Under the pieces are notes generated by a model that saw nothing but the letters and a program-made list of their open reading frames with translations, ran no database searches and was not told the DNA's origin. A program made the position numbers and the translations under genes. Below are positions 8,951-59,736 of a stretch of DNA of 64,000 bases, one piece after another. Each line of letters starts with the position of its first letter. The first letter of the stretch is position 1. The DNA comes from Dehalococcoidia bacterium (GTDB lineage: Bacteria > Chloroflexota > Dehalococcoidia > Dehalococcoidales > Fen-1064), in NCBI GenBank assembly GCA_011170375.1, contig DUEV01000002.1:263052-327051 (forward strand), read 5' to 3'.

Positions 8951-8998
8951 TAGTATTCTGTAGATAAACAGCGCGGGTAAAAAGAGGTACAACAGAAA

Positions 8999-40651: not shown

Positions 40652-41329
40652 ATGACGACTATAGGTGAGCAGATTCTGATTAATATAGATGAGAAACAGG
40701 TCTTACGCGATGTCGGGTACTGTGCTACTTGTAAACCGCCGGCTCGCGTAACAGCACTAGCACGTGACTACGCAGCAAACGTAAATCAGCTGATTAATCC
40801 CGCATTTTCATATGTCATCAAAGATATTGACTTCGTCATTAATTCAAGTGTTTTTATTGAAGGCGGAGCTATTTTCCAAAGCCAGGTTATCTCTGAATTA
40901 CTCAAAAAGTGTGAGAAAGTGGCCGTATTTGCCCTGACTATAGATGGTTATCTTGAGGACACTGTTGCCCAGCTTGCAGAAGATGGGCTCATCGTACAGG
41001 CCAGGTTACTTGACGCCATAGGCTCAAACGCGGTTGAGCGGGTGGCTGACTATGTGCAGTATATAATAAAACAGAGGGTTAGCACTCAGGGGCTTCAAAT
41101 TAGTCGGCGCTTTAGCCCAGGTTATTGCGATTGGGAAGTAAACCAACAGCAGACGCTTTTCCGTACCCTTAATGGCAGTATCATCAGTATTCAATTGACT
41201 GAAGAGAACCTGATGATTCCCCGCAAATCAATATCGGGCATCATTGGTATCGGAACCCTTGCAAGCGAGATAGTGAGCTACAATCCGTGTTTATCCTGCC
41301 AAAAGCACGATTGTGTCGGCAGGAGATAG
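40652..41329 (+). CDS. Stand-alone protein resembling the MetH (B12-dependent methionine synthase) activation domain
   Basis: 225 aa. ...ISRRFSPGYCDWEVNQQQTLFRTL...LTEENLMIPRKSISGIIGIG resembles the RxSPGYxxW...LTExxxMxPxKSVSG core of the Met_synt_B12 domain. This is recalled from memory and not verified. Confidence 0.6.
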   Translation: MTTIGEQILINIDEKQVLRDVGYCATCKPPARVTALARDYAANVNQLINPAFSYVIKDIDFVINSSVFIEGGAIFQSQVISELLKKCEKVAVFALTIDGYLEDTVAQLAEDGLIVQARLLDAIGSNAVERVADYVQYIIKQRVSTQGLQISRRFSPGYCDWEVNQQQTLFRTLNGSIISIQLTEENLMIPRKSISGIIGIGTLASEIVSYNPCLSCQKHDCVGRR

Positions 41330-41335
41330 ACATTA

Positions 41336-42781
41336 ATGAAACCTATTCGTAAAGGTGTTATTGGAGGTAGATACAAGCCACTTTCCGAGGAGTCAGTAAA
41401 AAAAGTTCATGAGACCGCCATGCGGTTGATTGAGGAAGTAGGCTTCCAGGTAAACTCAGAAACAGCCTTGGGGCTTTTTCAGAAAGCTGGAGCCCAGGTA
41501 GACAGAGAAAGGCGGCTGGTACGTCTACCTCATGAAAAAGTAATAGAACTGATAAATACAGCTCCCTCCGAAGTCAGGTTTTGCGGGCAAGAAGAAGAGC
41601 ATGACATACTCCTTGGAGGGAGCCGTGTATATGCCGGTACCGGTGGAACCGCCCTCAATATCTATGAGCCAGACACAGGCCAAAGACGCCTCGCCACTCT
41701 GGAAGATATAAGGCGAATTGCCAAACTGGTCAATAGTCTAGACAATATCCATCTTTTTATGTTAGCTACCTATCCCAATGAACTACCTGTGGAGCAAGTA
41801 GACGTAAACCGCTTTTTTGCCGGGCTGGACAACAGCACCAAGCACATCATGGGTGGTGTCTACACAGCCGAGGGAGTGAAACAGGTAGTACGCATGGCCG
41901 AGATAGTGGCTGGCTCCGCAGAAGCTCTCCGGGAACGCCCAATTATCTCGATGATAGCCTGTAGCATGAGTCCCATGAAGCTGGATGCTCACTACGGTGA
42001 CCTGGTGGTTGTCATTGCCGAGAGCGGTATCCCGCTTGTATGCCCGGCCGAGCCTCTATGCGGGGCTACTTCACCGGTTACGCTGGCCGGTAATCTAGTA
42101 ATACAGACAGTTGATTCACTGATGGGTGTTATGCTCGCCCAGATTGTAAACCCGGGAACACCGACTATCTTCGGCTCAGTAGCCACCAGCACGGACTTGT
42201 CTAACCTTGGCTATCTGGCCGGTTCAATTGAGATGGGACTGATTAATGCCGCCGGTGCTCAGATGGCGCAATTTTACAAGCTCCCCTTTTATGCCACTGG
42301 CGGTATGACAGACTCCAAGGTACTGGATGCCCAGAGCGGTTATGAATCAGCCCTGACCGGTCTGCTCTGTGCACTGGCAGGCTCCAATTTTATCCACGAC
42401 GCCGCCGGGCTCATGGAATTCGCCATGACAGTATGCTATGAGAAGCTCGTTATCGACAATGAAATACTGGGAATGGTGATGAGAGCAGTCGAAGGCATCA
42501 GAGTGGACGACGAGACGCTGGCATTCGACCTCATCAAAGAGGTGGGGCCGGGGGGTAATTTTGCCACCGCCAAGCACACCAGGCGTTTCATGCGCACTGA
42601 GCACTACCTGCCTACTCTGACTGACAGAGACAGCCGGGCTGACTGGGAAACGAAGGGGAGCAAGGCCACCTGGCAGCGAGCCGGAGAAATCGCAAGGCAG
42701 CTTATAGCCGATAGTAACTACCATCTCCCTGAGACAGTCAGACAGCAAATACTCTCTGAAATGAAAGGTATAGTAGAATAA
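41336..42781 (+). CDS. MttB (trimethylamine methyltransferase) superfamily protein, non-pyrrolysine, paralog 1
   Basis: 481 aa. N-terminal YKPLSEESVKKVHETAMRLIEEVGFQV...FQKAGAQVD is typical of MttB. The frame is uninterrupted with no in-frame TAG. Confidence 0.9.
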   Translation: MKPIRKGVIGGRYKPLSEESVKKVHETAMRLIEEVGFQVNSETALGLFQKAGAQVDRERRLVRLPHEKVIELINTAPSEVRFCGQEEEHDILLGGSRVYAGTGGTALNIYEPDTGQRRLATLEDIRRIAKLVNSLDNIHLFMLATYPNELPVEQVDVNRFFAGLDNSTKHIMGGVYTAEGVKQVVRMAEIVAGSAEALRERPIISMIACSMSPMKLDAHYGDLVVVIAESGIPLVCPAEPLCGATSPVTLAGNLVIQTVDSLMGVMLAQIVNPGTPTIFGSVATSTDLSNLGYLAGSIEMGLINAAGAQMAQFYKLPFYATGGMTDSKVLDAQSGYESALTGLLCALAGSNFIHDAAGLMEFAMTVCYEKLVIDNEILGMVMRAVEGIRVDDETLAFDLIKEVGPGGNFATAKHTRRFMRTEHYLPTLTDRDSRADWETKGSKATWQRAGEIARQLIADSNYHLPETVRQQILSEMKGIVE

Positions 42782-42785
42782 ATAT

Positions 42786-43595
42786 ATGCTGGTAATCGGA
42801 GAAAAAATTAACGCTTCCAACAGGCTCGTTGCTGAGGCTATTATTGCTAGGAACGAAGGGTACATAGCGGGACTAGCCAAAGCGCAGGCTGACGCCGGGG
42901 CCGATTTCATTGACGTGAATGTTGGCACAGCCAAACAGACCAGGCAGGAACAGATGGCAGCCATGGAGTGGGCGGTAGAAGCTGTACAAACGGCCACTGA
43001 CAAGCCACTGGCAATTGATAGTGATATCCCTGAAGTCATAGAAACAGGTATGCGAAAATATGGCAAGGAAGAACTGGTAATTAACTCCGTCAATGCCGAA
43101 CCAGAAAAGTTGGAAGCAATAGGTCACCTTGCTGGCGGGCGTCAGGTGCGGCTGGTAGCACTGGCAATGAGTGCCGAGGGAATACCCCCCACCGCAGAAG
43201 AGAGACTGGCAACCTGCGAAACAATAATGACATACCTGACACGGCTCGGTGTTAGTGAAGAGCAGGTCTATTTTGACCCGCTGGTGCTTCCTGTAAGTGT
43301 CGATTCAGGACAAGCACTGACAACACTGAAGACTCTTGAACGAATCAAAGTGCGGTATCCACAAGCAAAAACAGTAATGGGCCTGAGCAACGTCTCCTAT
43401 GGTCTACCCAACCGAAAGCTAATAAACCGGGCATTCCTGCTAATGGCAGCCTATGTCGGACTGGATGCTGCCATACTCGACCCTCTCGACGCCAAAGCAA
43501 TGAGCCTCATTAAAGCCGCTGACATTCTCGTTGCAAAGGACCCGCAATGCCGGCGGTACATCAGAGCCTACCGAAACGGCACTCTGATGGCTTAG
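42786..43595 (+). CDS. Pterin-binding methyltetrahydrofolate:corrinoid methyltransferase (MtgA/MtqA/AcsE-like)
   Basis: 269 aa. MLVIGEKINAS..., GADFIDVNVG, and LSNVSYGLPNR, typical of the DHPS-like pterin-binding barrel. Confidence 0.85.
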   Translation: MLVIGEKINASNRLVAEAIIARNEGYIAGLAKAQADAGADFIDVNVGTAKQTRQEQMAAMEWAVEAVQTATDKPLAIDSDIPEVIETGMRKYGKEELVINSVNAEPEKLEAIGHLAGGRQVRLVALAMSAEGIPPTAEERLATCETIMTYLTRLGVSEEQVYFDPLVLPVSVDSGQALTTLKTLERIKVRYPQAKTVMGLSNVSYGLPNRKLINRAFLLMAAYVGLDAAILDPLDAKAMSLIKAADILVAKDPQCRRYIRAYRNGTLMA

Positions 43596-43605
43596 GAGAG
43601 ATACG

Positions 43606-45123
43606 ATGGGAAGAAACGGAGTGCTCGTAGAGCCATACCAACGACTGAATGAAGTGCAGATAGAGAAGATACATCAGGCTTCACTGAGTATCCTACTTGA
43701 TCCAGGTATTATCTGCTTTAACAAAGACGCAGCTCAGGTCTTTGGTGATAACGGCGCTGAGGTTGAGCCGGGCGCTCAGGAAGATAGCTGGCTAGTCAGG
43801 ATACCCGAAAAAATCATATCAGAAGCAGTATCAGCGGCACCGAAGGTAGTGAAACTGGGAGCCCGCGACGAGGACAACTGCCTTGTTCTTGACGGGAGTG
43901 AGCCTAGGATACACTTTGCCTCTGGCTCCGAGGCCAATAATTGGCTCGACGTGGATATAGAGCCGTTTATCAGCAAACGAGACCCCAGTAAAGAGATGGC
44001 TTTTCCTGTGTTCACTATCCGGAAGGGCACGGTGGATAGACTGGCGCAAGCAGCACACCTCTGCGAGCACCTGGACTCGTGGGACAGCTTCCTGCGCACA
44101 GTCAATATCCAAGACGACGATATTGACGATACCAACAAGGATGTCAACAAGTTCTTTGCCTCTCTGAACAATACCACCAAGCACGTCATGTCCGGACTGA
44201 CCGACCTCAGCCAGCTCGAAAACGTGCTCAAGATGGCGGAGATTATTGCGGGGGGTCAAGACAAGCTCAGAGATAATCCCATTATTTCTTTTATCACCTG
44301 CACAATTAAGAGCCCTCTTCAGCTTGTAGACGATACTTCACAGAAAGCCATAGAAGTAGCCAGGAGAAAGATTCCGCTAGTAATTTCGAGTTCCCCTCAG
44401 GGTGGCTCGACTGCCCCAATAACGGAAGAAGGTATGGTATCCCAGATAAACGCCGAGATTCTGGTGGGAATAGCCCTGGCCCAGCTGGTTAGTAAAGGGG
44501 CACCGGTGCTATATGGCAGCGTGCCTGTTAGAACCCGCCTGGATGACCTTAATGACTCCTACGGAGTCCCCGAGTTCAGCCAGTACAACATAGACTGCGT
44601 CCAAATGGCACGTTACTATGGCCTGCCGTGCTATTCTACAGCCGGCGTCTCTGATGTGGAGGTACCCGGCATACAGGCCCTGGTGGAGAGGCTATTCTCG
44701 CACATCCTGGTAGCTCTATCTGGTGCACAATACATCCACTATGCCTTCGGTTTACTGGAACGGACGAATACCTTTTGCCCCGTTCAAGCCATACTCGACA
44801 ATACACACATCGAAATGGTCAAGAGATTTGTTCAAAAGTCGGATTTTACAGACGACTCGATTACGGAATGTCTGGAGCAGGTACGGAGAGTCATGGGTAC
44901 GTCACACAAGCTGTATATGCGCTTTGTTCGTAAAGCCCTGCGCTCCGGTGAGATAGCCCCCCCTTATCCCTTCGAAAGCAAAGGAATGACAGACGAGACC
45001 ATGCTACGTGCCAGGGAACGGATGGACGAAATACTATCATTGCCATCCTGCCATATGGACAAAGCAACGGTAGATATGATATATCAACAAGTACCTGGCC
45101 TGTTACCTAGGCTGCGCAGCTAG
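43606..45123 (+). CDS. MttB superfamily protein, non-pyrrolysine, paralog 2
   Basis: 505 aa. YQRLNEVQIEKIHQASLSILLDPGI...FGDNGAEVE. It has no in-frame TAG and is clearly diverged from paralog 1. Confidence 0.9.
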   Translation: MGRNGVLVEPYQRLNEVQIEKIHQASLSILLDPGIICFNKDAAQVFGDNGAEVEPGAQEDSWLVRIPEKIISEAVSAAPKVVKLGARDEDNCLVLDGSEPRIHFASGSEANNWLDVDIEPFISKRDPSKEMAFPVFTIRKGTVDRLAQAAHLCEHLDSWDSFLRTVNIQDDDIDDTNKDVNKFFASLNNTTKHVMSGLTDLSQLENVLKMAEIIAGGQDKLRDNPIISFITCTIKSPLQLVDDTSQKAIEVARRKIPLVISSSPQGGSTAPITEEGMVSQINAEILVGIALAQLVSKGAPVLYGSVPVRTRLDDLNDSYGVPEFSQYNIDCVQMARYYGLPCYSTAGVSDVEVPGIQALVERLFSHILVALSGAQYIHYAFGLLERTNTFCPVQAILDNTHIEMVKRFVQKSDFTDDSITECLEQVRRVMGTSHKLYMRFVRKALRSGEIAPPYPFESKGMTDETMLRARERMDEILSLPSCHMDKATVDMIYQQVPGLLPRLRS

Positions 45124-45149
45124 GAGCTGTACTAGAGAGGAAAAGCGAA

Positions 45150-45848
45150 ATGACTGAAGATATTATCGCACTAATAAAGGAAAACGTTATCCAGGGAAGG
45201 GTAACTGCAGATGACGAAGGTATGGATGAAGGATGGGTGGGCAAACCGGGAGTTACCGAACTGGTGGAACAGGCCCTCGCCGAGAATGTCAGTGTGGCAG
45301 ATATTATCAACAAGGGCCTTACCGACGGCATGAGCGTGGTCGGTGAGAAATTCGAGTCCAAGGAGTACTTTATTCCCGACATGCTCGCTTCGGCGGAAGC
45401 GGTTGGTAGTGCCATGGAAATACTAGAGCCGCACCTGAGCAAGAGTGGCATAGAAGCCAAAGGTAAAATCATTGTGGCCACTGTAAAAGGTGACCTCCAT
45501 GACATTGGCAAGAATATCGTGTCGATACTACTTCGAGGTTCCGGTTACATAGTAAAAGACCTCGGGAACGATGTTGAGCCTCAGGCTATCGTGGATGCGG
45601 TGAAAAAAGAAAATCCACAGTTTGTCGGCCTATCAGCGCTACTTACCAGCACCATGGTGAATATGGGTGAGACGATACAGGCCCTCAAGGACAACGGGCT
45701 GAGAGACAAGGTGAAAGTAATCATCGGTGGCGCGCCAGTCTCGGAAGAGTTTGCCCAGAGTATTGGCGCTGATGGCTACGGCGCCGACGGATTCCAAGCA
45801 GTAGCCATAGTCGAGTCCCTGGCCTCAGGCAGCGGTGGGAACAGCTAA
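45150..45848 (+). CDS. Corrinoid (cobalamin-binding) protein, MtgC/MttC-like
   Basis: 232 aa. An N-terminal helical cap, then DxHxxG (GDLHDIGKNIV), SxL (LSALLT) and GG (IIGGAPV). This is the complete base-off/His-on B12 motif set. Confidence 0.9.
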   Translation: MTEDIIALIKENVIQGRVTADDEGMDEGWVGKPGVTELVEQALAENVSVADIINKGLTDGMSVVGEKFESKEYFIPDMLASAEAVGSAMEILEPHLSKSGIEAKGKIIVATVKGDLHDIGKNIVSILLRGSGYIVKDLGNDVEPQAIVDAVKKENPQFVGLSALLTSTMVNMGETIQALKDNGLRDKVKVIIGGAPVSEEFAQSIGADGYGADGFQAVAIVESLASGSGGNS

Positions 45849-47077
45849 TGGCTCAGGAAATAGACGCATATAATGAGGCACTGAGCAGTGGCCAGTATGA
45901 GAAGCCCGGCGGCCTCATTGGCAAATACGACAACGCACGCCGCTTCTGGGAGGACGAGCAACTCGGCCTTTACCTGCGTCCATACCTGGAACGGATGGTA
46001 GCCCGCAAACAGAACCGCCGGGAAAAGCTGCATATCATGGATATTGGCTGCGGTAGCGGGGACGGCTTTGAGTTTATCACCAGCATTGACAAAAGCCAGT
46101 CTCCAATTTCGCAGCACGACAGTCGACTTATCACGCCATCCACAGTTGAGCTCTACACAGGGGTTGACATCAACGATGGACTGGTAAAACAGGCACAGGG
46201 CACATACGGGAACCGGGACAATATGGAATTCATCGTTTCGGACTTCAACGACTACCCGTTTACTGAGGGACCACCCTATGATGTCTATCTTGCCAACTAT
46301 GGCACCTTTTCCCACAACACGGATGAACAAACGACAAAAATCCTGAATAAACTCGCCAGACATTCCGATAACGGTGCCATAATCGCTATCGACTGGTTGG
46401 GGCGCTATTCATACGAGTGGCAGTCGCTATGGACCAGGGACTTGAAGAATAACCAGTGGATGGATTATGTCATCTCCTACATTTATACTGAAGACGAGAG
46501 GGAGACACAGGACCTGACCGCCTTTGCACTAAGAATAGTCGGGCGGGCAGAGGTGCAGCACATCTACCATCAGGCGAAAAAGATGGGAGGAGGGGCTCTC
46601 GTGCTACGCAAGCTGGTTGACCGCTCCTCATTTGTCGGCCGGCACATGGACACGAAACAATATAATCCTCATGCCCAACCCCTCCGTGGGTTAGTAAACT
46701 CGCTCTTCGAACCCAACGTTTCCACCAATCTGGATGAACTAATGATAGACTATGTCCCTATGGAAGGCTTTGATGAAGTAAACGCCTACCACCGTGAACT
46801 GACCAGGTGGTGGAACTACCTCATAGCTTGCATCAAGGCACTGCTGGAGAAAAAGGCTACCCCGGAAGCCCCGGCAAGGACACCCGGTGTTGTCACGAGG
46901 GCACTCAGCGCTATGAAGAAAACAATCAGAAGTGCTGACAGAATCAAAATTGGCAACCCACGGAGCAGCCTGATTGAGCCACAGCTTGGCTACTGTCTCA
47001 GGGAGCTCGAGATAGGCCTACAAAAAGGACTCGGCTGCGGTCACGGACTGGTAGCCATTTTCGAGATTGTGAAATAG
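45848..47077 (+). CDS. Large class I SAM-dependent methyltransferase (409 aa) with an uncharacterised C-terminal half
   Basis: Motif I IMDIGCGSGDGFEF, then GVDINDGLV. The ATG overlaps the corrinoid protein's TAA (TAATG). Confidence 0.65.
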   Translation: MAQEIDAYNEALSSGQYEKPGGLIGKYDNARRFWEDEQLGLYLRPYLERMVARKQNRREKLHIMDIGCGSGDGFEFITSIDKSQSPISQHDSRLITPSTVELYTGVDINDGLVKQAQGTYGNRDNMEFIVSDFNDYPFTEGPPYDVYLANYGTFSHNTDEQTTKILNKLARHSDNGAIIAIDWLGRYSYEWQSLWTRDLKNNQWMDYVISYIYTEDERETQDLTAFALRIVGRAEVQHIYHQAKKMGGGALVLRKLVDRSSFVGRHMDTKQYNPHAQPLRGLVNSLFEPNVSTNLDELMIDYVPMEGFDEVNAYHRELTRWWNYLIACIKALLEKKATPEAPARTPGVVTRALSAMKKTIRSADRIKIGNPRSSLIEPQLGYCLRELEIGLQKGLGCGHGLVAIFEIVK

Positions 47078-47116
47078 GTCCCGCACAGGCCAAGACTTCA
47101 GGAGGACCCCCATTAG

Positions 47117-48634
47117 ATGAGCGGACTGGCTGTTGCCTTTGGCGACTCAGGTCGAAATGAAATAAACGCCATCATGCGCAAGATTGCCCACCGAGGTCCG
47201 TATACCTCAGGGGTATACGAAAACGGTCGTATTATCATGGCCCAGAACTACCTCCAGGCGGACGGCACCACTGCCGATGGCAGCAATATCCCCGTCCGGA
47301 GTAGCCACAATACAGACCTGGCAATCTGTTACGATGGACAAATCGGCAACTGGCCCGAGCTTACCCAACGATATGACATACCAGATGGTGCCTATAAAGA
47401 AGAACGATTACTGCTAGCCCTTTATGAAAAATACGGTCTGGATATGCTCCGGCATCTGAATGATGCCATTTTTACCTTTGTTATTTCTGATGGAAAAGAC
47501 CTTTTTGCCGCTCGTGACCTGCTCGGTATAAAAACCATGTTCTACGGCCGTAAAGACGATACCCTGTATCTTGCCTCGGAACTCAAGGCCATATTAGCAG
47601 TAACCGATGAGGTCTACGAGTTCCCCAACGGGCACTACCTTGACCAGAGCGAGCGGTTTACCCGATTCGCTGGGCTGCCACAAAGTCCGCCCAGGTTCTG
47701 GGACTACGACGTCGAGAAGATGGCGGCGGACATCCGCGAAATCATCGAGCGCAGCTTCCGAAACCGGATTGATTTCTCAGTACCCACCGGGGGTCTGCTC
47801 AGTGGTGGGATGGACAGCAGCGTCATCAACTATCTCGCCAGCAAAGCCTATAAGAAGAAGCATGGGCAGACAGCCAGACTAAAGACATTTGCTCTCGGCG
47901 TCGGAGAGAGTAGCGACATCCTGTCTGCCCGCATCATGGCCGAACATATAGATTCCGAGCACCATGAATTACTTGTTGACCTCAAGCAGATACTGGAAGT
48001 CCTTCCCGAGGTAATCTACTACCTGGAGAGCTTCGACCCGTCGCTGGTCAGAAGTGCCGTGTCCAACTACCTCATCTCACGATATGCCAGGGACCACGGT
48101 ATCCAGATACTACTCTCTGGAGAGGGCGGGGACGAGATATTCTGCGGGTATAAGTACCTGGAAAATTACCCTGCCGATGAACTGTTTGCCAAGCAGATGG
48201 AATGCCTCGGTTTCCTGCACAATAATGCTTCACTTCGGCTCGACCGCATGAATATGTGCAATTCTGTCCGTGTTGTCGCCCCGTTGATATCGGGAGAGCT
48301 GCTGCAGTACGCCATGTCGATACCCCCACAGTACAAGCAGAAGCCTGAGGGAAGCGGGAAGATGGAGAAATGGATTTTCCGCAAGGCCTACGAAGCCCTG
48401 CTGCCCGAATCTATCTTATGGCGGGGCAAGCAGGAATTCTCCCAGGGCTCAGGCTCTGCCGGTGTCCTGCCAGCCCACTTTGAAAAACAGTTCTCCGACC
48501 AGGAACTTACCGAGGCCCAGGCCAGATATCCCATAATCCGCAGCAAAGAAGAGCTCTACTATTTCAATGTCTTCACCGAGCACTTCGGGACAGACCATAC
48601 TGTGGCAACCGTGGGACAGTGGATATCTCTTTAA
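47117..48634 (+). CDS. Asparagine synthetase B-like PP-loop enzyme with Ser in place of the N-terminal nucleophile Cys
   Basis: 505 aa. Starts MSGLAVAF rather than the canonical MCG. It retains HRGP, YDGQIGN, RDLLGIK and the PP-loop SGGMDSS. SD CAGGAGGA. Confidence 0.85.
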   Translation: MSGLAVAFGDSGRNEINAIMRKIAHRGPYTSGVYENGRIIMAQNYLQADGTTADGSNIPVRSSHNTDLAICYDGQIGNWPELTQRYDIPDGAYKEERLLLALYEKYGLDMLRHLNDAIFTFVISDGKDLFAARDLLGIKTMFYGRKDDTLYLASELKAILAVTDEVYEFPNGHYLDQSERFTRFAGLPQSPPRFWDYDVEKMAADIREIIERSFRNRIDFSVPTGGLLSGGMDSSVINYLASKAYKKKHGQTARLKTFALGVGESSDILSARIMAEHIDSEHHELLVDLKQILEVLPEVIYYLESFDPSLVRSAVSNYLISRYARDHGIQILLSGEGGDEIFCGYKYLENYPADELFAKQMECLGFLHNNASLRLDRMNMCNSVRVVAPLISGELLQYAMSIPPQYKQKPEGSGKMEKWIFRKAYEALLPESILWRGKQEFSQGSGSAGVLPAHFEKQFSDQELTEAQARYPIIRSKEELYYFNVFTEHFGTDHTVATVGQWISL

Positions 48635-48713: not shown

Positions 48714-48762
48714 TTTGTGGTATAGGGAACTCACCAGAATGACCTGGCTAAAGGAGACAGTC

Positions 48763-51237
48763 ATGGTTATTGCAGAAAAACCGAAATTGAAGGAAGACCG
48801 GATAACTAAGGAGATGAGGAAAGACCTTGCCTACCAGAGCAAGAGCGGACGGGGGGCGGGGAGAATTGAGGCATCCGAAGGAAAGGTTGAGAGAGTTATC
48901 GAAGAAGGACGGATGCCTTATCGCCCGGAAATAAGACTCTGCATTGAGCGGGCCCGGTTAATAACCGAAGGCTATAAGCAGGCGGAAGAAGACCCCATAA
49001 TCCTGAGACGGGCCAAGGCCCTGGCACATTATCTGGACAACCGGACGCTGTATATCCTTCCCCACCAGAGAATCGTGGGCAATAGCGCCAGTGAGCCCTG
49101 CTCACTGATTACCTTCCCGGAGAAGTGGAGCAACTGGCTGGAAAAGGCCGTCGATGGTGAGTATCAGATGCTCTTGCCCGATGAGAAAGACAGGCAGGAG
49201 TTGCATGAGATTCACAAGTACTGGCGTAACAGATCTGTCCACGGCATGGAGCGACGCCTGCTCCCTGAGGATGTACTGGAATACTGGTACTACAACAACC
49301 AGGGGGTATTTATGTGGCTTCATGGCGGCCATGTCGGCACACCGAACTATGAAAGGATGTTTAAGACGGGGCTGAGAGGGGTGGTGGAGGAGGCTAAGGC
49401 CAAACTGGAAGAAACATCCTCGGATCCGGAGCTCTACCTCCATCCCGGAGACTACCTCAACAAAAAGCGCTTCTATGAGGCTGTAATAATAATCACGGAG
49501 GCGGTCATTAACCAGGGCAAGAGGTTCTCCCAGCTATGCCAGCAGGAGGCAGCCGCGGAAAAGGATGAAAAGAGGAAGGCCGAACTGGTGGAGATGGCCG
49601 AGATATGCGAATGGGTGCCAGAGAACCCACCCCGCACCCTCCACGAGGCGTTGCAGTCCTTCTGGTTCATCAACTTGATTGCCAGAGTGCTCGACCTGCA
49701 GACTTCGGGAAATGGTGAGAGAATCGACCAGATATTCTATCCCTTCTACAAGAAGGATAAGGAGGAGGGGAGGCTTACCTATGAGGAGGCCGAGGAACTG
49801 GTAGAGCACCTGGTGCTCATGTTCAACGAGGAAGGGGCACTGATTCCCCCGTCCCAACCAAAGGCCGGTCCCCTGATCACGCGCGTCACTACCATTGGCG
49901 GCGTGACCCGTGAGGGGGCAGACGCTACCAACGAGATGACTTTCATGTTCATGGACGCCAAAAACGAAATGGGGCTTAATCAGCCGGCGCTGGCGGTCAG
50001 GCTACACCCCCAGACCCCCCAGGCACTATACGAAAAGATATTGGAGTCTGTGCTGAAGCAGCCAGGCGTCTATTCTTTCTTCAACGATAGCATGATGATT
50101 CCCTTCCTGATGAACCTGGGCATACCTCTGGAGGATGCCCGTGATTACACCACTGATGGCTGCATGAGGTGGATTATCCCGGGCAAAGCCATGAGCCAGC
50201 GGGCCCTCGGTGGCAGGGTCGCTCTGCCAAAGTGCCTGGAATATGCCCTATACCAGGGAGTGGACAAGTTCAGCGGCAAGCAGGTGGGACCCCGCACCTC
50301 CGACCCCCTGACCTGGACATCCGTTGAGGACGCGATGCAAGGATACGAGGAACAGCTAAGATTCTTCATGCACAAGCTGTTCACCATATACAATCTGGTG
50401 GACATGCTTGACGGAGAATGGCTGCCGCAGCCTTTCCTTTCTGCCGTGGTGGATGACTGTATTGAGCAGGGGAAGGATGTCCGCGAATATAAATATTACC
50501 CCAACACCATCATTCAGCCGGTCGGTCAGGTGACCATAATCAACTCCTTGGCAGCCATGAGAAAGCTGGTATTCGACGATAAGAAAGTGTCCATGGCAGA
50601 GCTGCTCGATGCCCTCAGGAACAACTGGGAAGGCAAGGAAGACCTGCGTCAGATGTTCCTCAATGAGCCCCCCAAGTGGGGTAACGATGATGACTACGTC
50701 GACCTCATCGGACGTGACTTCTACACGAGGACGAACAGGGTGGTAAAGAGCTTTAAGAACATCTGGGGCGTCTCCCATAACGAGGACGGGACCGGAGCCT
50801 CAACCTACTTCGACTACAGCGGGATGACCGGCGCCACGCCTGACGGCAGAAAAGACCTCGACCTGTTCAATGACGGCACGGTATCCCCAGCCGTCGGTAC
50901 AGATTTGAAGGGGCCGCTGGCAACCATGAAGTCGGTGAGTAAAATTGACCATGCCGGCACCTTCACCCACCTGTTCAATCAGAAGTTTACCCCGGCTGAG
51001 GTGAAGAGGAACGACGGGGCCAACTTCATTGCCCTGCTCAGGACGTTCGTTGACCTCGGCATCCATCATACCCAGTTTAACGTGAGTGACCGGGAGACAC
51101 TGCTGGATGCCCAGAAGCACCCAGAGAAGTACGGTGACCTGGTGGTCAGGGTGGCTGGACTGGCCGCCTACTTCGTCGACCTGACCAAACCGGTGCAGGA
51201 CCAGATTATCGCCCGGACGGAGCTGAGCTTCGGTTGA
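48763..51237 (+). CDS. Glycyl radical enzyme, PFL2/eliminase-like clade, atypical active-site loops
   Basis: 824 aa from the ATG at 48763 (SD AAAGGAG); the track start at 48715 is 16 codons longer. N-terminal RARLITEGYKQAE...RIVGN. Cys loop LEDARDYTTDGCMRW (TGC at 50161). C-terminal glycine radical motif VVRVAGLAAYFVDL...QDQIIARTE (GGA at 51157). Confidence 0.9.
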   Translation: MVIAEKPKLKEDRITKEMRKDLAYQSKSGRGAGRIEASEGKVERVIEEGRMPYRPEIRLCIERARLITEGYKQAEEDPIILRRAKALAHYLDNRTLYILPHQRIVGNSASEPCSLITFPEKWSNWLEKAVDGEYQMLLPDEKDRQELHEIHKYWRNRSVHGMERRLLPEDVLEYWYYNNQGVFMWLHGGHVGTPNYERMFKTGLRGVVEEAKAKLEETSSDPELYLHPGDYLNKKRFYEAVIIITEAVINQGKRFSQLCQQEAAAEKDEKRKAELVEMAEICEWVPENPPRTLHEALQSFWFINLIARVLDLQTSGNGERIDQIFYPFYKKDKEEGRLTYEEAEELVEHLVLMFNEEGALIPPSQPKAGPLITRVTTIGGVTREGADATNEMTFMFMDAKNEMGLNQPALAVRLHPQTPQALYEKILESVLKQPGVYSFFNDSMMIPFLMNLGIPLEDARDYTTDGCMRWIIPGKAMSQRALGGRVALPKCLEYALYQGVDKFSGKQVGPRTSDPLTWTSVEDAMQGYEEQLRFFMHKLFTIYNLVDMLDGEWLPQPFLSAVVDDCIEQGKDVREYKYYPNTIIQPVGQVTIINSLAAMRKLVFDDKKVSMAELLDALRNNWEGKEDLRQMFLNEPPKWGNDDDYVDLIGRDFYTRTNRVVKSFKNIWGVSHNEDGTGASTYFDYSGMTGATPDGRKDLDLFNDGTVSPAVGTDLKGPLATMKSVSKIDHAGTFTHLFNQKFTPAEVKRNDGANFIALLRTFVDLGIHHTQFNVSDRETLLDAQKHPEKYGDLVVRVAGLAAYFVDLTKPVQDQIIARTELSFG

Positions 51238-51268: not shown

Positions 51269-52183
51269 GTGAGCGGCATGGAAGAAGAGCGCGGTCTGGT
51301 ATTCCTCATCCAGAGGTACAGCGTCCAGGACGGCCCCGGCCTGAGGACTACCATATTCATGAAGGGGTGCCCGCTGCGGTGTCAGTGGTGCCAGAACCCC
51401 GAGTCTCTTAGTCTTCACCCCGACCTCATGACCCACGACACGAAGTGTATGCTGCTCGGTAAATGCGCTGATGCTTGTCCCCTGGGGGCGATTACTATCG
51501 ACCGGAAGAGCCGGAAGATTGACCGTGCCAAGTGCGACCTCTGCTTTCACTGTGTCGACACCTGCCCCACTAAAGCCCTGAGCAAGGTGGGGGAATACAT
51601 GACAGTGGCAGAGGTAATGGCGGAAATCGAGCGGGACGAGCTCTTCTATCGTCGGTCGGGTGGGGGGGTAACAGTCTCGGGTGGCGAGCCGCTGCTTCAA
51701 TGGCAATTCGTCCATAGGCTATTAGAGGCGTGCAAGCAGAGACACCTGCACACTGCTCTGGACACCTGCGGATACGCCCAATGGCCCATACTGGAAAAAG
51801 TCTTAGAGCATGTCGACCTCGTTCTCTACGACATCAAGCACATTGACCCGGAGCTTCACAAGAAAGCCACCGGCAAGAGCAACCAGCGCATTCTGCGTAA
51901 TCTGCACCTGATACCTCCCCACAAAAAGGTTTGGCTCAGGCTCCCCCTCATCCCCGGATTCAACGATTCCAGAGAGAATCTAACGGAACTCGGCAAACTG
52001 GGGCAGGAAATCGGGGTGGAGAAGGTGAGTATCCTCCCCTATCACAAGCTGGCGGAGGAGAAATACCGGCAACTAGGCATGCAGCGTAAGATGTCCCCCC
52101 TCAAGCCCCCGACCAAAAGGCAGCTCCAGAAGGTGCAGCCACTTATCGAGAGCTTTGGCCTGCAGGTGACTATTGGGAGTTAG
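51269..52183 (+). CDS. Glycyl-radical enzyme activating protein (radical SAM with two auxiliary ferredoxin-like clusters)
   Basis: IQRYSVQDGPGLRTTIFMKGCPLRCQWCQNPE (CxxxCxxC), plus CMLLGKCADACP and CDLCFHCVDTCP. The track start is a GTG at 51269, with an alternative ATG at 51278. Confidence 0.9.
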   Translation: MSGMEEERGLVFLIQRYSVQDGPGLRTTIFMKGCPLRCQWCQNPESLSLHPDLMTHDTKCMLLGKCADACPLGAITIDRKSRKIDRAKCDLCFHCVDTCPTKALSKVGEYMTVAEVMAEIERDELFYRRSGGGVTVSGGEPLLQWQFVHRLLEACKQRHLHTALDTCGYAQWPILEKVLEHVDLVLYDIKHIDPELHKKATGKSNQRILRNLHLIPPHKKVWLRLPLIPGFNDSRENLTELGKLGQEIGVEKVSILPYHKLAEEKYRQLGMQRKMSPLKPPTKRQLQKVQPLIESFGLQVTIGS

Positions 52184-52225: not shown

Positions 52226-52444
52226 TCATCTGTGGGAGCCACTCAAGCACTTGGCACAATTGTCATATCCCTGACTGTGGGCTTCAAATAATATATCAGG
52301 TTCGAAGGTCACGGCATGACCAGCCCTGATAATCTCGTCGATTTGACACCCACTCCCTGAGGTATCTTCGTTATCCAGGTCATGCACTTCTTTCGACTTG
52401 ATGTTGCCGAGGAATCTTTTACCAGGATACTGAGGTCTACGCAT
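52226..52444 (-). CDS. Small Cys-containing protein (72 aa), possibly metal-binding
   Basis: ...SKEVHDLDNEDTSGSGCQIDEI...AHSQGYDNCAKCL resembles the xKxYHxxxC...GYxPCxxC small-domain pattern. SD AAGGGAGG. Confidence 0.45.
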   Translation of the reverse strand: MRRPQYPGKRFLGNIKSKEVHDLDNEDTSGSGCQIDEIIRAGHAVTFEPDILFEAHSQGYDNCAKCLSGSHR

Positions 52445-52658: not shown

Positions 52659-52836
52659 TTGACGGGTAGAGTCTTTGTGATATGATAGGGCTGAAGGTGG
52701 GGGAGGGGATGATAGTCTAGGTGGACCTTCAGAAAGGAGATGAGCCTATGTATGATGATAAATGGAGGTCTTCTGCCTAGATAGAAGACCTTCGCATTAA
52801 GAGCGGGGCCATCGTTTGGTGGTCCCGTTCTTATTT
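52659..52836 (+). ncRNA. Candidate small RNA / leader unit: promoter, two hairpins, a 10-codon micro-ORF and an intrinsic terminator
   Basis: TTGACG-N16-TATGAT (52659-52686). 8-bp helix CTGAAGGT/ACCTTCAG (52691-52732). SD AAAGGAG plus ATG at 52748 (MYDDKWRSSA*). 9-bp hairpin 52766-52791. Terminator CGGGGCCA-N8-TGGTCCCG followed by TTCTTATTT (52804-52836). No + strand gene follows. Confidence 0.3.
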
Positions 52837-53699: not shown

Positions 53700-54938
53700 A
53701 TGGTCTCAAGTGAACCAGAAAAATTGGAGGCACTAAGAGAGGAAGTCCGGGCTTTTCTACGTGAGAACCTTCCCGAGAAATGGGGAACACCGGCGTATGA
53801 GCCGCTAGAAGCAGGTAGCGAGGAACAAGTTGCACTGAGCAAATCGTTCACGAAGAAGCTATACGACGCCGGCTATACCGCATTCGGTGTTCCCGCTGAG
53901 TATGGCGGCATAGAACGCCCACGGGAGGAGATAGCCGTCATCCGTGAAGAGCTCAGGCGCCAGGGAACACCGATGCCATTCGTCGGTCTGGGACGATTGG
54001 TTGTCGACACACTACTGCAGTGGGGTACGGAAGAGCAAAAGAAACGCTTCCTTCCCCCGATACTGAGAGGTGAAGTCTACTGGATTGAGGGCTTCTCCGA
54101 ACCCAATGCCGGTTCGGACCTGGCTGGTGTCCAGACCACCGCCGTCAGGGACGGCGATGAATGGGTAATTAACGGGCAGAAATGCTGGACCAGTGGCTGG
54201 GACTATGGCGAATGGGGCTTCCTGCTGTGCCGAACGGACGTGAATGCCCCGCGGCACCGCAACCTAGGCTTCTTTCTCTTCGACTGCAACACACCCGGCT
54301 TCAGTCGAAGACCGTTGTACCAGATAACTGCCGAAGCCCATGCCCAATATGGTGAACTCTTCTTCGACGATATGCGCGTCCCCCACGAGAACCTGGTAGG
54401 TGAAGAAGGCAGAGGCTGGTATATCGCCATGACGACGCTGATTGCCGAGAGGGGTGGAGGCCAGGTATCCGCAGCCAGCGGTGAGACCGGTGGAATGGGC
54501 CTGGGCCTGTTTGGTACAAGGACCATAGGCGGTGTTGACAGTCTGATTGAACTCGCCAGGAAGACCAAGCACTATGGTCAGACCGCCTGGGACGATAGTA
54601 GTTTCCGCAGGAGAATAGCCCAGATTGCCATTGAGAACGAGGCAATGAGGGCTTACGGCATGCGCCTCGGCAAGATGATTATGAGTGGGTCTGCCTCCGG
54701 AAATGAAGCCTCGATGGCGAAATTGACCTGGACCGAACAGGGCAAACGACGGGGAGACATGGTGTGTGAAATGATTGGGGCCTACTCCCAGCTGATGAGG
54801 GGTGACCCAAGGGCAGTAGATAATGGTGACCTTGTTTTCAGTATGCTCATGTCACGAGGTACCACTATATTTATGGGTACCTCGGAGATATGCCGCAACA
54901 TTCTCTCCGAAAGGATACTGGGACTGCCCAGGGGATAG
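53700..54938 (+). CDS. Acyl-CoA dehydrogenase family protein (FadE-like)
   Basis: 412 aa. GFSEPNAGSDLAG, WVINGQKCWTSG and a C-terminal GTSEICRNILSERILGLPR. SD AAAGGAG. Confidence 0.85.
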   Translation: MVSSEPEKLEALREEVRAFLRENLPEKWGTPAYEPLEAGSEEQVALSKSFTKKLYDAGYTAFGVPAEYGGIERPREEIAVIREELRRQGTPMPFVGLGRLVVDTLLQWGTEEQKKRFLPPILRGEVYWIEGFSEPNAGSDLAGVQTTAVRDGDEWVINGQKCWTSGWDYGEWGFLLCRTDVNAPRHRNLGFFLFDCNTPGFSRRPLYQITAEAHAQYGELFFDDMRVPHENLVGEEGRGWYIAMTTLIAERGGGQVSAASGETGGMGLGLFGTRTIGGVDSLIELARKTKHYGQTAWDDSSFRRRIAQIAIENEAMRAYGMRLGKMIMSGSASGNEASMAKLTWTEQGKRRGDMVCEMIGAYSQLMRGDPRAVDNGDLVFSMLMSRGTTIFMGTSEICRNILSERILGLPRG

Positions 54939-54995
54939 TCCGACGAGAAAACAGCACAGCATATTAGTTAAGAAGGAATATAAGGAGCATTAGTC

Positions 54996-56150
54996 ATGGC
55001 GATAGAACTCGGTCTCAATGAAGAACAGTCGATGTTAAAGACGATGGCAAGGGATTTTCTAGCCACTGAAGCCCCGAAGACGTTTGTCCGGCAGATGATG
55101 GATGACGAGGTAGGGCATTCCCCGGAACTGTGGCAGAAGATGGCCGAACTCGGGTGGCAAGGGCTCGTTTTCCCCGAGGAGTACGGCGGAGCGGCAATGA
55201 ATTTCAGAGACCTGACGATACTCTGTGAGGAGATGGGGCGGGCTGTAATGCCCGGTCCCTTCTACTCGACCGTTATTCTCGTCGGGCTACCTATTCTCGA
55301 TTTCGGTACTGACGAACAAAAAGCGGAATTCCTCCCCAAAATAGCTAATGGCGAGATTGTCTGCACTCTCGCCGCCCTCGAGGAAAGTGGTGACCTGTGG
55401 GCAGATGATTTGCATTTCAGGGCATTACCGCGTGGCGATGGTTATGCCCTCAGTGGCACCAAAATGTTTGTCACCGATGCCAAGGCAGCCGATTACATGC
55501 TCGTCGCTGCCCGCACTAGGCGTACCCAGGACCCTGAAGACGGAGTCACTCTTTTTATGGTCAATGCCAATGATTTCGGAATATACATAGATAATATGAC
55601 TGTCATGGACCTGACCCGGAAGCAATATGAAGTGCGGTTCACCGATGTGCCGGTATCTGCCAGCAATATTATCGGTGAATTACATGGAGGCTGGCCTATC
55701 CTGCAGCAGATTGCCCTCAAAGCATCAGCGGTACTTAGCGCCGAGATGGTCGGAGCAGGTGAGATGGCAATGGAAATGACCGTAGCCTACCTGAAGGACA
55801 GGATGCAGTTCGGCGTGGTCATCGGTACGTTCCAGGCACTAAAGCACAAGGCAGCCGACATGTACGCTGCCATGGAGTATTCCCGCTCACTCATGGAATG
55901 GGCAGCCGAGTGTGTCAAGGAAGACGACCGCGATGCCCCTATGGCTGTCGCTATGGCCAAGAGCTACTGCGGTGACGCCGTCAAGTTCGTCACGGATGCG
56001 GGGATCCAGTTGCATGGTGGCATTGGCTTCACATGGGACCACGATATGCACCTGTACTTCAAGAGGGGCAGGTACAACGACACCACCTTCGGTGACAGCA
56101 ACTACCAGAAAGAGTGGATAACCAGGAAACTTGAAGCCAACCTTATGTAA
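54996..56150 (+). CDS. Acyl-CoA dehydrogenase family protein (second subunit-like)
   Basis: 384 aa. ...LHGGIGFTWDHDMHLYFKRGR, typical of the actinobacterial-type FadE C-terminus. SD TAAGGAG. Confidence 0.85.
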   Translation: MAIELGLNEEQSMLKTMARDFLATEAPKTFVRQMMDDEVGHSPELWQKMAELGWQGLVFPEEYGGAAMNFRDLTILCEEMGRAVMPGPFYSTVILVGLPILDFGTDEQKAEFLPKIANGEIVCTLAALEESGDLWADDLHFRALPRGDGYALSGTKMFVTDAKAADYMLVAARTRRTQDPEDGVTLFMVNANDFGIYIDNMTVMDLTRKQYEVRFTDVPVSASNIIGELHGGWPILQQIALKASAVLSAEMVGAGEMAMEMTVAYLKDRMQFGVVIGTFQALKHKAADMYAAMEYSRSLMEWAAECVKEDDRDAPMAVAMAKSYCGDAVKFVTDAGIQLHGGIGFTWDHDMHLYFKRGRYNDTTFGDSNYQKEWITRKLEANLM

Positions 56151-57724: not shown

Positions 57725-59707
57725 ATGATGGAGTGTGAAAGAAGAACGACTCGAATAATCATTGAGGGAGTAACCCCTGAGATTGATGGTGGTCGCTTCC
57801 CTATCAAACGGATCATCGGCGACAGGGTGATTATAGAGGCCGATATATTCGCCGATGGTCATGACGCTCTGTCTGCTGTGCTCCTTCACCGCACGGAAGA
57901 CAACCCGAATTGGAGCGAAGTGCCCATGGAGTCTCTGGTCAATGACCGCTGGCGCGGCTCCTTTGTGGTCACCAAACTAGGGCGCTATCGGTATACATGC
58001 GTGGCCTGGGTTGACCGCTTCAGGACCTGGCAGCAGGACATGTTGAAGAGGGTCGAGGCGAAGCAAGATGTTTCTGTTGATTTCCTGATAGGTGCCCAAC
58101 TGATTGAGGAAGCAATCCAGCGTGCCGGAAAAACTGATGCGGGCAATATGAAGAAATGGGTAGAGTCACTACGTTCGAGTCAGGTGTCGCCCTCGGCAAA
58201 AGCCAGGCTGGTACTAGGTAAAAAGGTGGCCGCAGTCATGGCCAAGTACTCAGATAGAAGATTTTCTGTTACTTATCCCGAAGAACTTGTCGTGGTCGTT
58301 GACCGCGAGAAGGCACGTTTTAGCACCTGGTATGAGATGTTCCCCCGTTCCTGCATGTCTGAGCCTGGTCGTCACAGCACCTTCAAGGATTGCGAGACGC
58401 GCCTTCCCTACATCTCAGAGATGGGCTTTGATGTGCTGTATTTCCCCCCAATCCACCCCATCGGCCACACCAGCCGGAAGGGTAAGAATAACAATCCCAC
58501 GGCCAAAGCGGGTGACCCTGGCACCCCCTGGGCTATCGGGTCACAAGAAGGGGGGCACAAATCAGTCCATCCTCAGCTCGGTACTTTAGAAGACTTCCGA
58601 GGCTTCATTAATAAGGCGCGAGAGTATGGAATTGAGATAGCCCTTGACCTGGCTTTCCAGTGCTCACCCGACCATCCCTACGTTAAAGAACACCCGGAAT
58701 GGTTCAGGTGGCGTCCGGATGGGACGGTGCAGTATGCCGAAAACCCACCCAAGAAGTATCAGGATATTTACCCGCTGGAATTCGAGACCGATAACCAGCA
58801 GGAACTCTGGGAGGAGCTTAAGAGCATTATCCTTTTCTGGATAGAGCAGGGAGTACGCATCTTCCGGGTGGATAATCCCCATACCAAGCCCTTCGTTTTT
58901 TGGGAGTGGTTGATTAACGAGGTCAAAAGGGACTACCCCGAAGTCATCTTCCTGTCCGAGGCCTTTACCCGGCCCAAGATAATGTACCGTCTGGCCAAGC
59001 TGGGTTTCACCCAGTCTTATACCTATTTCACCTGGCGCAATGTCAAGTGGGAGCTCACCGAGTACTTCACCGAGCTCACTCAGACCGATGTTCAGGAGTT
59101 CTTCCACCCTAACCTCTGGCCAAATACCCCTGACATTCTGAGCGACTACCTTTGTGACGGCGGGTGGCCGGCATTCATGACACGGCTTGTGCTGGCGGCG
59201 ACTCTGGGAGCTAGTTACGGGATTTATGGTCCTGCCTTTGAGCTCTGCGAAAACCGCCGAAAAGACAAGGAAAGTGAAGAGTATCTGGACTCAGAAAAAT
59301 ACGAGCTCAAGCAGTGGGATATCAAGAGCCCCGACAGCCTCAAGGATTTCATTGCCCGGGTAAATAGCATCCGCAGGCAAAATCCAGCCCTGCAGAGTGA
59401 CCTTAGTCTGTGTTTTCACTCAGTAGATAACGACCAGCTTATTTGCTATAGCAAGCATACGGAAGACCTTTCTAACGTAATACTGGTTGTTGTGAATCTG
59501 GATTATCGGTATAAGCAGTTGGGGTGGGTAGACCTTTCCCTTGATGAACTGGGGATTGACCTCAGCAAGCCGTATAAAGTACGTGATCTGTTAACGGATG
59601 CTACCTATCAGTGGCAAGGCTCTCGAAACTACGTGGAACTGGATCCTGGAAAGATACCTGCCCATATCTTTCGGATAGACCAGGGGATTACTGAGAGCAA
59701 GAATTAG
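57725..59707 (+). CDS. glgE: Alpha-1,4-glucan:maltose-1-phosphate maltosyltransferase
   Basis: 660 aa. N-terminal IEGVTPEIDGGRFPIKRIIGDRV, then YFPPIHPIG..., RVDNPHTKP, and LSEAFTRPK, typical of GlgE (GH13_3). Confidence 0.9.
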   Translation: MMECERRTTRIIIEGVTPEIDGGRFPIKRIIGDRVIIEADIFADGHDALSAVLLHRTEDNPNWSEVPMESLVNDRWRGSFVVTKLGRYRYTCVAWVDRFRTWQQDMLKRVEAKQDVSVDFLIGAQLIEEAIQRAGKTDAGNMKKWVESLRSSQVSPSAKARLVLGKKVAAVMAKYSDRRFSVTYPEELVVVVDREKARFSTWYEMFPRSCMSEPGRHSTFKDCETRLPYISEMGFDVLYFPPIHPIGHTSRKGKNNNPTAKAGDPGTPWAIGSQEGGHKSVHPQLGTLEDFRGFINKAREYGIEIALDLAFQCSPDHPYVKEHPEWFRWRPDGTVQYAENPPKKYQDIYPLEFETDNQQELWEELKSIILFWIEQGVRIFRVDNPHTKPFVFWEWLINEVKRDYPEVIFLSEAFTRPKIMYRLAKLGFTQSYTYFTWRNVKWELTEYFTELTQTDVQEFFHPNLWPNTPDILSDYLCDGGWPAFMTRLVLAATLGASYGIYGPAFELCENRRKDKESEEYLDSEKYELKQWDIKSPDSLKDFIARVNSIRRQNPALQSDLSLCFHSVDNDQLICYSKHTEDLSNVILVVVNLDYRYKQLGWVDLSLDELGIDLSKPYKVRDLLTDATYQWQGSRNYVELDPGKIPAHIFRIDQGITESKN

Positions 59708-59736
59708 CGTATAATGCATGAGAGAGGTTGACTAAT

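Follow-up and report, generated by a model that had tools for sequence, protein, structure and literature searches.

A glycyl radical enzyme gene with a CMRW Cys loop points to an uncharacterised family in Dehalococcoidia and other sediment bacteria

Glycyl radical enzymes (GREs) are oxygen-sensitive radical enzymes, and their reaction classes are recognised largely through the residues of the Cys loop and the substrate pocket. What, then, does a GRE do when these residues match none of the known classes? A gene of a Dehalococcoidia bacterium (48763..51237, plus strand) raises this question. It lies within 64,000 nucleotides of contig DUEV01000002.1 (assembly GCA_011170375.1, positions 263,052 to 327,051), the whole of which was analysed and is called the window here. 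Judged by its residues, the 824-aa product is the founding example here of a family, the CMRW family, in a group of GREs that lack glutamate two residues after the catalytic cysteine (Cys+2). The reading we favour, with a probability of roughly one half, is that its substrate is a polar, carboxylate-bearing acid, probably dicarboxylate-like or CoA-linked, that enters a beta-oxidation-like route.

The open reading frame (ORF) is translated without interruption into 824 aa. Because the closest homologs are likewise 824 aa long, we preferred the ATG at 48763 over a TTG at 48715, and a ribosome-binding site read from the sequence (AAGGAG, 48751..48756, plus strand) 6 bases 5' of this ATG supports the same start. 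Pfam matches to PFL-like (PF02901, E 5.5e-170) and Gly_radical (PF01228, E 2.6e-26) revealed a barrel domain and a C-terminal glycyl radical domain and place the protein in the PFL-like branch of the GRE superfamily. The top match in the Protein Data Bank (PDB) was glycerol dehydratase (GDH; Clostridium butyricum, 1r8w; E 4.5e-132, phmmer) and the second-best was the isethionate lyase IseG/IslA (5ymr, 7kq3; 443 bits). The AlphaFold2 (AF2) model (pLDDT 81.9, pTM 0.85) has the same fold as the solved GREs, including GDH, PD, HypD, CutC, IslA/IseG, HpsG, HplG, YbiW, and PflD (TM-scores 0.84-0.89).

The Cys loop spans D458-K475 (DARDYTTDGCMRWIIPGK; 50134..50187, plus strand), as located by ungapped alignments to GDH, IseG, HypD, PflD, and CutC. 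An earlier sequence-only reading of this DNA had proposed a thiyl-radical loop, LEDARDYTTDGCMRWIIPGK, with a Cys codon at 50161, and both are found in the translated ORF. Cys467 (codon 50161-50163) sits in G-C-M-R-W, aligns with GDH C433, C493 of benzylsuccinate synthase (BSS), and C477 of 1-methylalkylsuccinate synthase (MASS), and shares the motif with Arg469 (50167-50169) and Trp470 (50170-50172). In 1,2-eliminases and isomerases, the Glu at Cys+2 of the CXE motif hydrogen-bonds the substrate (PMC13450708). Arg469 stands opposite this Glu in phmmer alignments with 1r8w, IseG (5ymr), HypD (6vxc), PflD, and CutC, as the sequence-only reading had it. We tried to regain a Glu at Cys+2 by realignment, and both the full-length and the 70-aa fragment phmmer alignments ran ungapped from DARDY to PGK, with no other placement. 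The loop is also distinct from that of the formate-lyases PFL and TdcE, which carry an adjacent CC pair where this protein has C-M.

The arginine is shared by the homologs. A search of 5.8 billion proteins gave, among the matches listed, 120 homologs at 58-93% identity. Their sources are Chloroflexota (Dehalococcoidia and others), Desulfobacterota, and a small number of archaeal bins, and many were sampled in Guaymas, hydrothermal, or marine sediments. In a MAFFT alignment of homologs, 119 of the 121 sequences carry GCMRW, far more than chance would give; the other two read GCVRW and MCMRW, and relatives at 47-50% identity have GCMRW, ACMRW, SCMRW, or DCMRH loops. In a narrower alignment of 23 sequences (A1; 58-82% identity to the protein), the mean column identity was 70% and more than 150 columns were invariant, including the entire Cys loop, Gly799, and R374, R480, H187, Q585, D675, G676, and T677 besides C467, R469, and W470. 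The Arg at Cys+2 is thus kept across the clade. Since GCMRW recurs in nearly all aligned homologs and CMRW or CMRH is still found at 47-50% identity, the loop variant is, on this pattern of conservation, not drift. Pattern scans of genome and metagenome contigs returned few true CMRW members among the matches listed; generic GRE patterns were dominant.

Does the protein belong to a characterised clade after all? Its scores fell below every NCBIfam equivalog cut-off, and its identity to solved GREs does not exceed 34%, which refutes membership in a CHARACTERISED clade. Against HpsG, HypD, CutC, HpfG, PflD-type, IAD, HPAD, and PFL equivalogs, it reached about half of the cut-off or far less (HypD 521 bits against 1100, CutC 452 against 1050, HpsG 533 against 1000, HpfG 431 against 1000, IAD 376 against 1100, HPAD 301 against 1150, and TIGR01255 for PFL 103 against 994). 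Even TIGR01774, the generic PFL2/glycerol-dehydratase subfamily, was missed (579 against 678). The eliminases and isomerases are its top sequence matches, with E values of ~1e-98 to 1e-132 but only 30-34% identity. Overall, solved relatives at 29-34% identity are spread evenly over eliminases, isomerases, X-succinate synthases (XSS), and arylacetate decarboxylase, and HPAD and PFL are both distant, with much lower phmmer scores than other solved GREs.

We extended the comparison with a profile-free scan of 1.84 billion cluster representatives (50% identity), which gave 1906 GRE-like clusters at E <= 1e-30. The nearest representatives are 39-45% identical to the protein, and their residue at Cys+2 is Trp, Ser, Gly, Thr, Tyr, Gln, Arg, Ile, or Val, never Glu. 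Among the best 150 of the 1906 representatives, CxE occurs in only about half and Arg at Cys+2 in a few others. No representative is more than 45% identical to the protein and none has CMRW, so the CMRW family seems to be unrepresented in this library or to stand under a divergent sequence; the scan informs on sister clusters and not on the size of the CMRW family. In a neighbour-joining tree, which is a rough guide only, the protein groups with about 22 clusters, all without Glu at Cys+2, and this group stands apart from all other sequences, GDH, BSS, and MASS among them.

Uncharacterised sister families at 39-50% identity have the loops CMSW, CASY/CAVY, CVY[LIM], CMVP, CMIP, and CMFP, all seen in metagenome loci, and CVRW. 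They share with the CMRW family the PGK end of the loop, an Asp-Gly-Ser/Thr strand, similar sediment taxa, and tandem arrays, but their Cys+2 and Cys+3 residues vary from family to family. On this comparison, the two positions look like specificity determinants in a radiating Glu-less group. Two arrays deserve mention on their own. One locus holds four tandem CMRW paralogs (L088, 2528-12439) and another four tandem GRE paralogs, three of them with CVY loops (L126, 4050-14827), each without an adjacent activase; they point to a lineage-specific expansion of the Glu-less group.

The suggestion that the protein has a distinct substrate class or chemistry thus holds in part. It is a fair inference from an invariant Arg and from the lack of a characterised clade, but the variant is less exceptional than claimed, because about half of the nearest 150 representatives also lack Glu at Cys+2. 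In the literature on Dehalococcoidia and Guaymas GREs, on novel fumarate-addition clades, and on clusters of GRE, enoyl-CoA hydratase-type, and carboxyltransferase genes, we found no description of a CMRW clade. Two papers on anaerobic benzene degradation that came up concern unrelated flavoprotein clusters. A 2026 review notes that whole GRE clades are still without assignment.

The second hallmark tells a different story. The Gly loop (R796-F804, RVAGLAAYF; 51148..51174, plus strand, from the translation) holds the radical Gly799 (codon 51157-51159), and the reported string VVRVAGLAAYF, with its Gly codon at 51157 and Leu after the radical Gly, is present. The GRE fingerprint is RVxG[FWY]x6-8[FL]x4Qx2[IV]x2R with the radical Gly (PMC13450708). 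The protein (RVAG-L-AAYFVD-L-TKPV-Q-DQ-I-IA-R) matches it everywhere but at [FWY], where it has Leu800. Within the CMRW family, the residue after Gly is Leu in 69, Phe in 31, and Tyr in 19 sequences, the residue at Gly-2 is V, I, T, Q, or L, and among the best 150 of the 1906 representatives Leu at Gly+1 occurs in none. The RVAGL variant is therefore not kept throughout the family, and the argument that both hallmark loops deviate together fails, because Gly+1 alternates between Leu, Phe, and Tyr within the GCMRW family. From these counts, Leu at Gly+1 is a derived polymorphism of a subclade, neither a hallmark of the clade nor coupled to the Cys loop. The protein keeps Gly799 and so lacks the Ala, Ser, or Thr that aminoacyl radical enzymes have at this site. 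Separately, several of the best 150 of the 1906 representatives (P0151, P0159, P0178, P0190, P0211, P0223, P0227, and P0134) have another residue at the radical-Gly site: Ala or Thr (VRVAAY, VRVSTW, VRVATY) and, in one, Asp (VRVCDY). The Ala and Thr cases are consistent with the recently described aminoacyl radical enzymes.

Downstream, a GRE-activating radical SAM enzyme of 304 aa (51269..52183, plus strand) carries a CX3CX2C motif and a two-ferredoxin-cluster insert. It scores 359 bits against the TIGR02494 cut-off of 174 and matches Pfam Radical_SAM and, at residues 56-105, Fer4 families, in line with the cognate two-ferredoxin activase proposed for this position. The spacer between the two genes is 32 bases. 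An activase ortholog follows the GRE in 8 of the 19 family loci that we compared, and the ortholog in the closest genome (L006, Dehalococcoidales bin10, CP070842) is 88% identical. We predict that the protein is a functional, activase-dependent GRE.

We mapped the active site with residue roles taken from a 2026 review of GREs and a paper on the structure of MASS (PMC13450708, PMC12358834). The GDH, BSS (TutD), and MasD sequences were rebuilt from printed alignments and then aligned with CMRW family members, and the IseG equivalences came from the phmmer alignment (SEQRES offsets of 20 for IseG and 19 for the protein). Arg469 corresponds to GDH Glu435 and to Ser in BSS and MASS (BSS S495), and Met468 to the Met of BSS and MASS, where eliminases have Val. 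GDH His164 and Ser282 are both kept (His190, Ser315), and GDH Tyr339, Asp447, and Tyr640 are replaced by Thr373, Ala481, and Thr677. The BSS pocket residues Tyr197, Leu391, Trp613, Asn615, Gln707, and Val709 become Gly189, Thr373, Ile583, Gln585, Thr677, and Ala679. The pocket is predicted to be polar and cation-rich, unlike the hydrophobic pocket of the hydrocarbon-activating enzymes.

Isethionate lyases hold their anionic substrate with arginines (PMC13450708). In the protein, the sulfonate-binding Arg187, Gln191, and Arg676 of IseG align with His187, Val191, and Asp675, and Glu468 of its Cys loop aligns with Arg469. By this alignment, the charges are swapped, from Glu to Arg on the Cys loop and from Arg to Asp on the facing strand, which implies a substrate oriented differently from that of IseG. 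Asp675 opens an Asp675-Gly676-Thr677 stretch on an active-site beta strand (50785..50793, plus strand), in which Thr677 corresponds to GDH Tyr640, BSS Gln707, and MASS Glu690. The Asp is kept in most sister families of the Glu-less group. A carboxylate may be supplied from elsewhere, with Asp675 as the candidate.

The genes around the family members offer the other line of evidence. We clustered the ORFs of 19 CMRW family loci (L numbers below) and assigned them with Pfam. A crotonase-fold protein of the enoyl-CoA hydratase (ECH) family is encoded in 11 of these loci. It is directly adjacent and co-directional in L003 (9101-9892), L089 (12598-13395), and L091 (857-1645), and in L089 it lies between the GRE and activase genes. 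Where 5zai has the two hydratase glutamates, this partner has Ser and Trp, and it keeps the Asp of PaaG-type enoyl-CoA isomerases; in these residues it resembles a PaaG-like isomerase. Acyl-CoA dehydrogenases (ACADs) occur in six loci (16 genes), as pairs in L001, L091, L097, L099, and L103. Pairs of carboxyltransferases of ~520 aa, most like MmdA but below the NCBIfam cut-off, are also found in six loci and lie directly upstream of the GRE in L001, L095, and L096. FadH/BaiCD-like flavoenzymes and thiolases each occur in four loci, and family III CoA-transferases occur as pairs in L006 and L097 and are present in L086 and L098. The window itself has an ACAD pair (412 and 384 aa; 53700..56150, plus strand; Pfam ACAD) whose top NCBIfam matches are the large and small subunits of pimeloyl-CoA dehydrogenase (PimC/PimD-like), both below cut-off, and the pair is a probable pathway partner of the GRE.

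Because the family-wide neighbours are acyl-CoA enzymes, we read the substrate or product as a polar carboxylic acid that is probably dicarboxylate-like or CoA-linked. In the mechanism we propose, the activase would install the radical on Gly799, which would generate a thiyl radical on Cys467, and this in turn would abstract a hydrogen from the substrate. Arg469, with Trp470, would bind a negatively charged part of the substrate, most likely a carboxylate, next to the thiyl, in the place of the hydroxyl-binding Glu of eliminases and isomerases. Asp675 on the facing beta strand would be the candidate acid/base, and His187 and His190 may assist. The product could then pass to the PaaG-like enoyl-CoA isomerase, PimCD-like acyl-CoA dehydrogenases, MmdA/GcdA-like carboxyltransferases, and family III CoA-transferases. 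The reaction is probably none of the textbook ones; Glu-assisted 1,2-elimination, pyruvate cleavage, and hydrocarbon addition to fumarate are each unlikely.

Several points weigh against this proposal. The neighbourhood is heterogeneous across the family loci, no ECH, carboxyltransferase, or old yellow enzyme (OYE) homologs were detected across the window, and distant members (58-60% identity) are often alone or in tandem arrays without an activase. The position of the GRE behind a cluster of quaternary-amine methyltransferase genes may point to a different substrate in this Dehalococcoidia bacterium. The AF2 model has low confidence at residues 472-482, Arg374 may, if the aligned strand register is correct, point away from the active site, and the orientation of side chains in the pocket follows from sequence homology only.

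A more specific version of the favoured proposal is tentative at best. The CMRW family, perhaps with the whole Asp-bearing Glu-less group, might form another reaction class of GREs, with dicarboxylyl- or acyl-CoA-type intermediates as substrates. It could, for instance, catalyse a radical rearrangement or C-C lyase step that needs no B12 and supplies the adjacent carboxyltransferases and the PaaG-like isomerase. If true, direct use of a CoA-linked substrate would be a first among GREs.

The alternative that survives best, though we regard it as unlikely, is that the protein catalyses a 1,2-elimination or isomerisation of a hydroxy- or amino-substituted acid without help from a Glu. Arg469 would hold a carboxylate or sulfonate and Asp675 would take over from the missing Glu and deprotonate the hydroxyl, followed by a spin-centre shift and the loss of water, amine, or sulfite; in this genome, a relative of the betaine-type compounds that the upstream MttB/corrinoid genes handle is a possible substrate. 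The Cys-loop flanks (LEDARDY..GC...PGK) are shared with eliminases, being closest to PflD, CutC, and GDH and not to XSS, the activases match in type, each with two extra ferredoxin clusters, and the retained His190 and Ser315 and the active-site position of Asp675 fit such a reaction. Neighbours in L086 and L007 (FAD-linked 2-hydroxyacid dehydrogenase, 2-oxoacid:ferredoxin oxidoreductase) and the co-directional methyltransferase/AsnB-like cluster that ends 129 bases 5' of the GRE also agree with it. However, the CXE motif that is kept in all characterised eliminases and isomerases (PMC13450708) is absent, and neither aldehyde-processing genes (such as aldehyde dehydrogenase) nor microcompartment genes are nearby. 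Even in relatives at 90-93% identity, the GRE is not accompanied by the MttB cluster, and the neighbours act mostly on CoA esters and not on keto-acids.

We consider it doubtful, more so than elimination, that the protein is a small-subunit-free hydroalkylase akin to XSS (BSS, 4pkc/5bwe; MASS, 9o8u), which would use fumarate or a different unsaturated dicarboxylate as the acceptor of a polar co-substrate, or perform the reverse C-C cleavage, with Arg469 and Arg480 binding two carboxylates. As in XSS, there is no Glu at Cys+2, Met follows the Cys (eliminases have Val), and an Arg lies shortly past the Cys loop. This residue, Arg480 (Cys+13; 50200..50202, plus strand), is invariant in the family and is 1-2 alignment positions from the fumarate-binding Arg at Cys+15 of XSS (BSS R508, MASS R492; PMC12358834). 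The XSS arginine, however, lies in a 3-residue insertion that the protein lacks, and the Arg480 region is within the low-confidence part of the AF2 model. The neighbours are like the bbs/alkylsuccinate toolkit (family III CoA-transferase pairs, ACADs, ECH, a short-chain dehydrogenase/reductase (SDR) pair, thiolases, and carboxyltransferases), and many members are from hydrocarbon-rich Guaymas and vent sediments. Against this, identity to BSS and MASS is only 29-30%, the protein and XSS are ungrouped in the neighbour-joining tree, the loop is CMRWI where XSS have CMSPG, and there is no adjacent B12 mutase. In place of the hydrophobic BSS pocket (Tyr197, Leu391, Trp613, Val709), the protein has Gly, Thr, Ile, and Ala plus polar Asp, His, and Gln. 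XSS also have beta, gamma, and delta subunits, whereas a search within 2.5 kb of the GRE in the 19 loci gave no conserved small ORFs, in agreement with the earlier statement that BssB/BssC-like genes do not accompany it. When we clustered 746 small ORFs from these loci in search of such subunits, the only candidates were antisense shadows of activase and carboxyltransferase genes.

Decarboxylation of a carboxylic or dicarboxylic acid, in which Arg469 would set the carboxylate by the thiyl for CO2 loss of the Kolbe type or initiated by hydrogen-atom transfer, is improbable. The substrate carboxylate of HPAD sits by the catalytic Cys, and an Arg next to the Cys suits carboxylate binding. Phenylacetate decarboxylase (PAD/PhdB) also does without Glu at Cys+2, where it has an essential Gln484, so Cys+2 is not universally Glu in GREs; it belongs, however, to a different clade and has an aromatic substrate. 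The decarboxylase equivalog scores given above are far below their cut-offs and no HPAD-type small subunit was found, and biotin-type carboxyltransferase/decarboxylase genes beside many members would make a second decarboxylase redundant. That the gene is a decaying or non-catalytic paralog with drifted motifs, for which one could cite the departure of both motifs from the published fingerprints and the several paralogs in Dehalococcoidia (including the four in tandem in L088), can be dismissed as extremely improbable and is contradicted by the conservation pattern, the intact frame, the dedicated activase at a 32-base spacer with its 88%-identical ortholog in the nearest genome, and the strong ribosome-binding site.

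By residue and profile comparison, then, the CMRW proteins are an uncharacterised GRE family that fails the defining traits of the eliminases and isomerases (CXE), the formate-lyases (CC), XSS (subunits, CMSPG, pocket), and the curated decarboxylase models. An invariant Arg for Glu, a candidate relocated carboxylate in Asp675, and reproducible acyl-CoA neighbours make the family a well-defined and experimentally tractable target in the search for a new anaerobic reaction, and its hosts (Dehalococcoidia, other Chloroflexota, and Desulfobacterota) are abundant sediment bacteria. The public labels of the listed homologs are generic or wrong: 'formate C-acetyltransferase', 'pyruvate formate lyase family', and even 'choline trimethylamine-lyase'. 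Formate or trimethylamine production inferred from CMRW genes is unsupported, as the defining residues of all three labels are absent. The value of the family as a discovery is tempered by the many clades already acknowledged as unassigned in the 2026 review and by the frequency of Glu-less Cys loops among uncharacterised GREs.

The genes upstream of the GRE in the window are co-directional (40652..48634, plus strand; Pfam, NCBIfam) and encode a RamA-like activator, two non-Pyl MttB-family methyltransferases, a pterin-binding methyltransferase, a corrinoid protein, a SAM-methyltransferase-like protein, and an AsnB-like protein. By tblastn, none of the MttB/corrinoid/AsnB-like genes is beside the GRE in L006 (93% identity), L092 (90%), or the other loci, and they were rejected as family-level context; a local association only is possible. 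In the 129-base gap between the AsnB-like gene and the GRE, a sigma-70 promoter scan gave TTGACA-17-TAATGT, which is below threshold, and the whole scan was at chance level. In L006, the region 5' of the GRE (3164-9751) holds two family III CoA-transferases, an ornithine cyclodeaminase/mu-crystallin protein, a radical SAM-HHH protein, and a 338-aa protein without a Pfam match.

Within the upstream genes, 40652-45848 (plus strand) is a compact quaternary-amine-type methyltransferase cluster. Its first MttB-family protein (481 aa) has no in-frame stop and is thus non-pyrrolysine, the second (505 aa) is more divergent, and the corrinoid protein is MtgC-like. The next gene (45848-47077, plus strand) encodes 409 aa with a weak SAM-methyltransferase domain (~50-180) and no NCBIfam match. 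The overlap of its start codon with the stop codon of the corrinoid gene suggests that the two are translationally coupled. The AsnB-like protein (47117-48634, plus strand; AsnB equivalog 394 against a cut-off of 499) starts MSGLAV, with Ser where glutamine-dependent asparagine synthases have the nucleophile Cys (MCG...). It may be ammonia-dependent or perform a different amidation or adenylation. Just upstream of the cluster, a B12-binding radical SAM protein of 477 aa is encoded at 38596-40029 (plus strand).

On the other side, a 72-aa ORF convergent with the activase gene (52226-52444, minus strand) has a C...CxxC pattern (GCQIDE...NCAKCLSG) and is not conserved beside the GRE in other loci. 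A very long, perfect-looking hairpin (52798-52833, plus strand; 16-bp stem with 8 G-C pairs, 4-nt loop), followed by TTTATGCTTC, lies ~600 bases past the activase gene and ahead of the ACAD pair, and could be a terminator or another structured element. Farther downstream (57725-63162, plus strand), a gene for a GlgE-type maltosyltransferase precedes one for a 1144-aa alpha-amylase/maltokinase-cap fusion (TreS-Mak-like); the two constitute a GlgE alpha-glucan pathway unrelated to the GRE.

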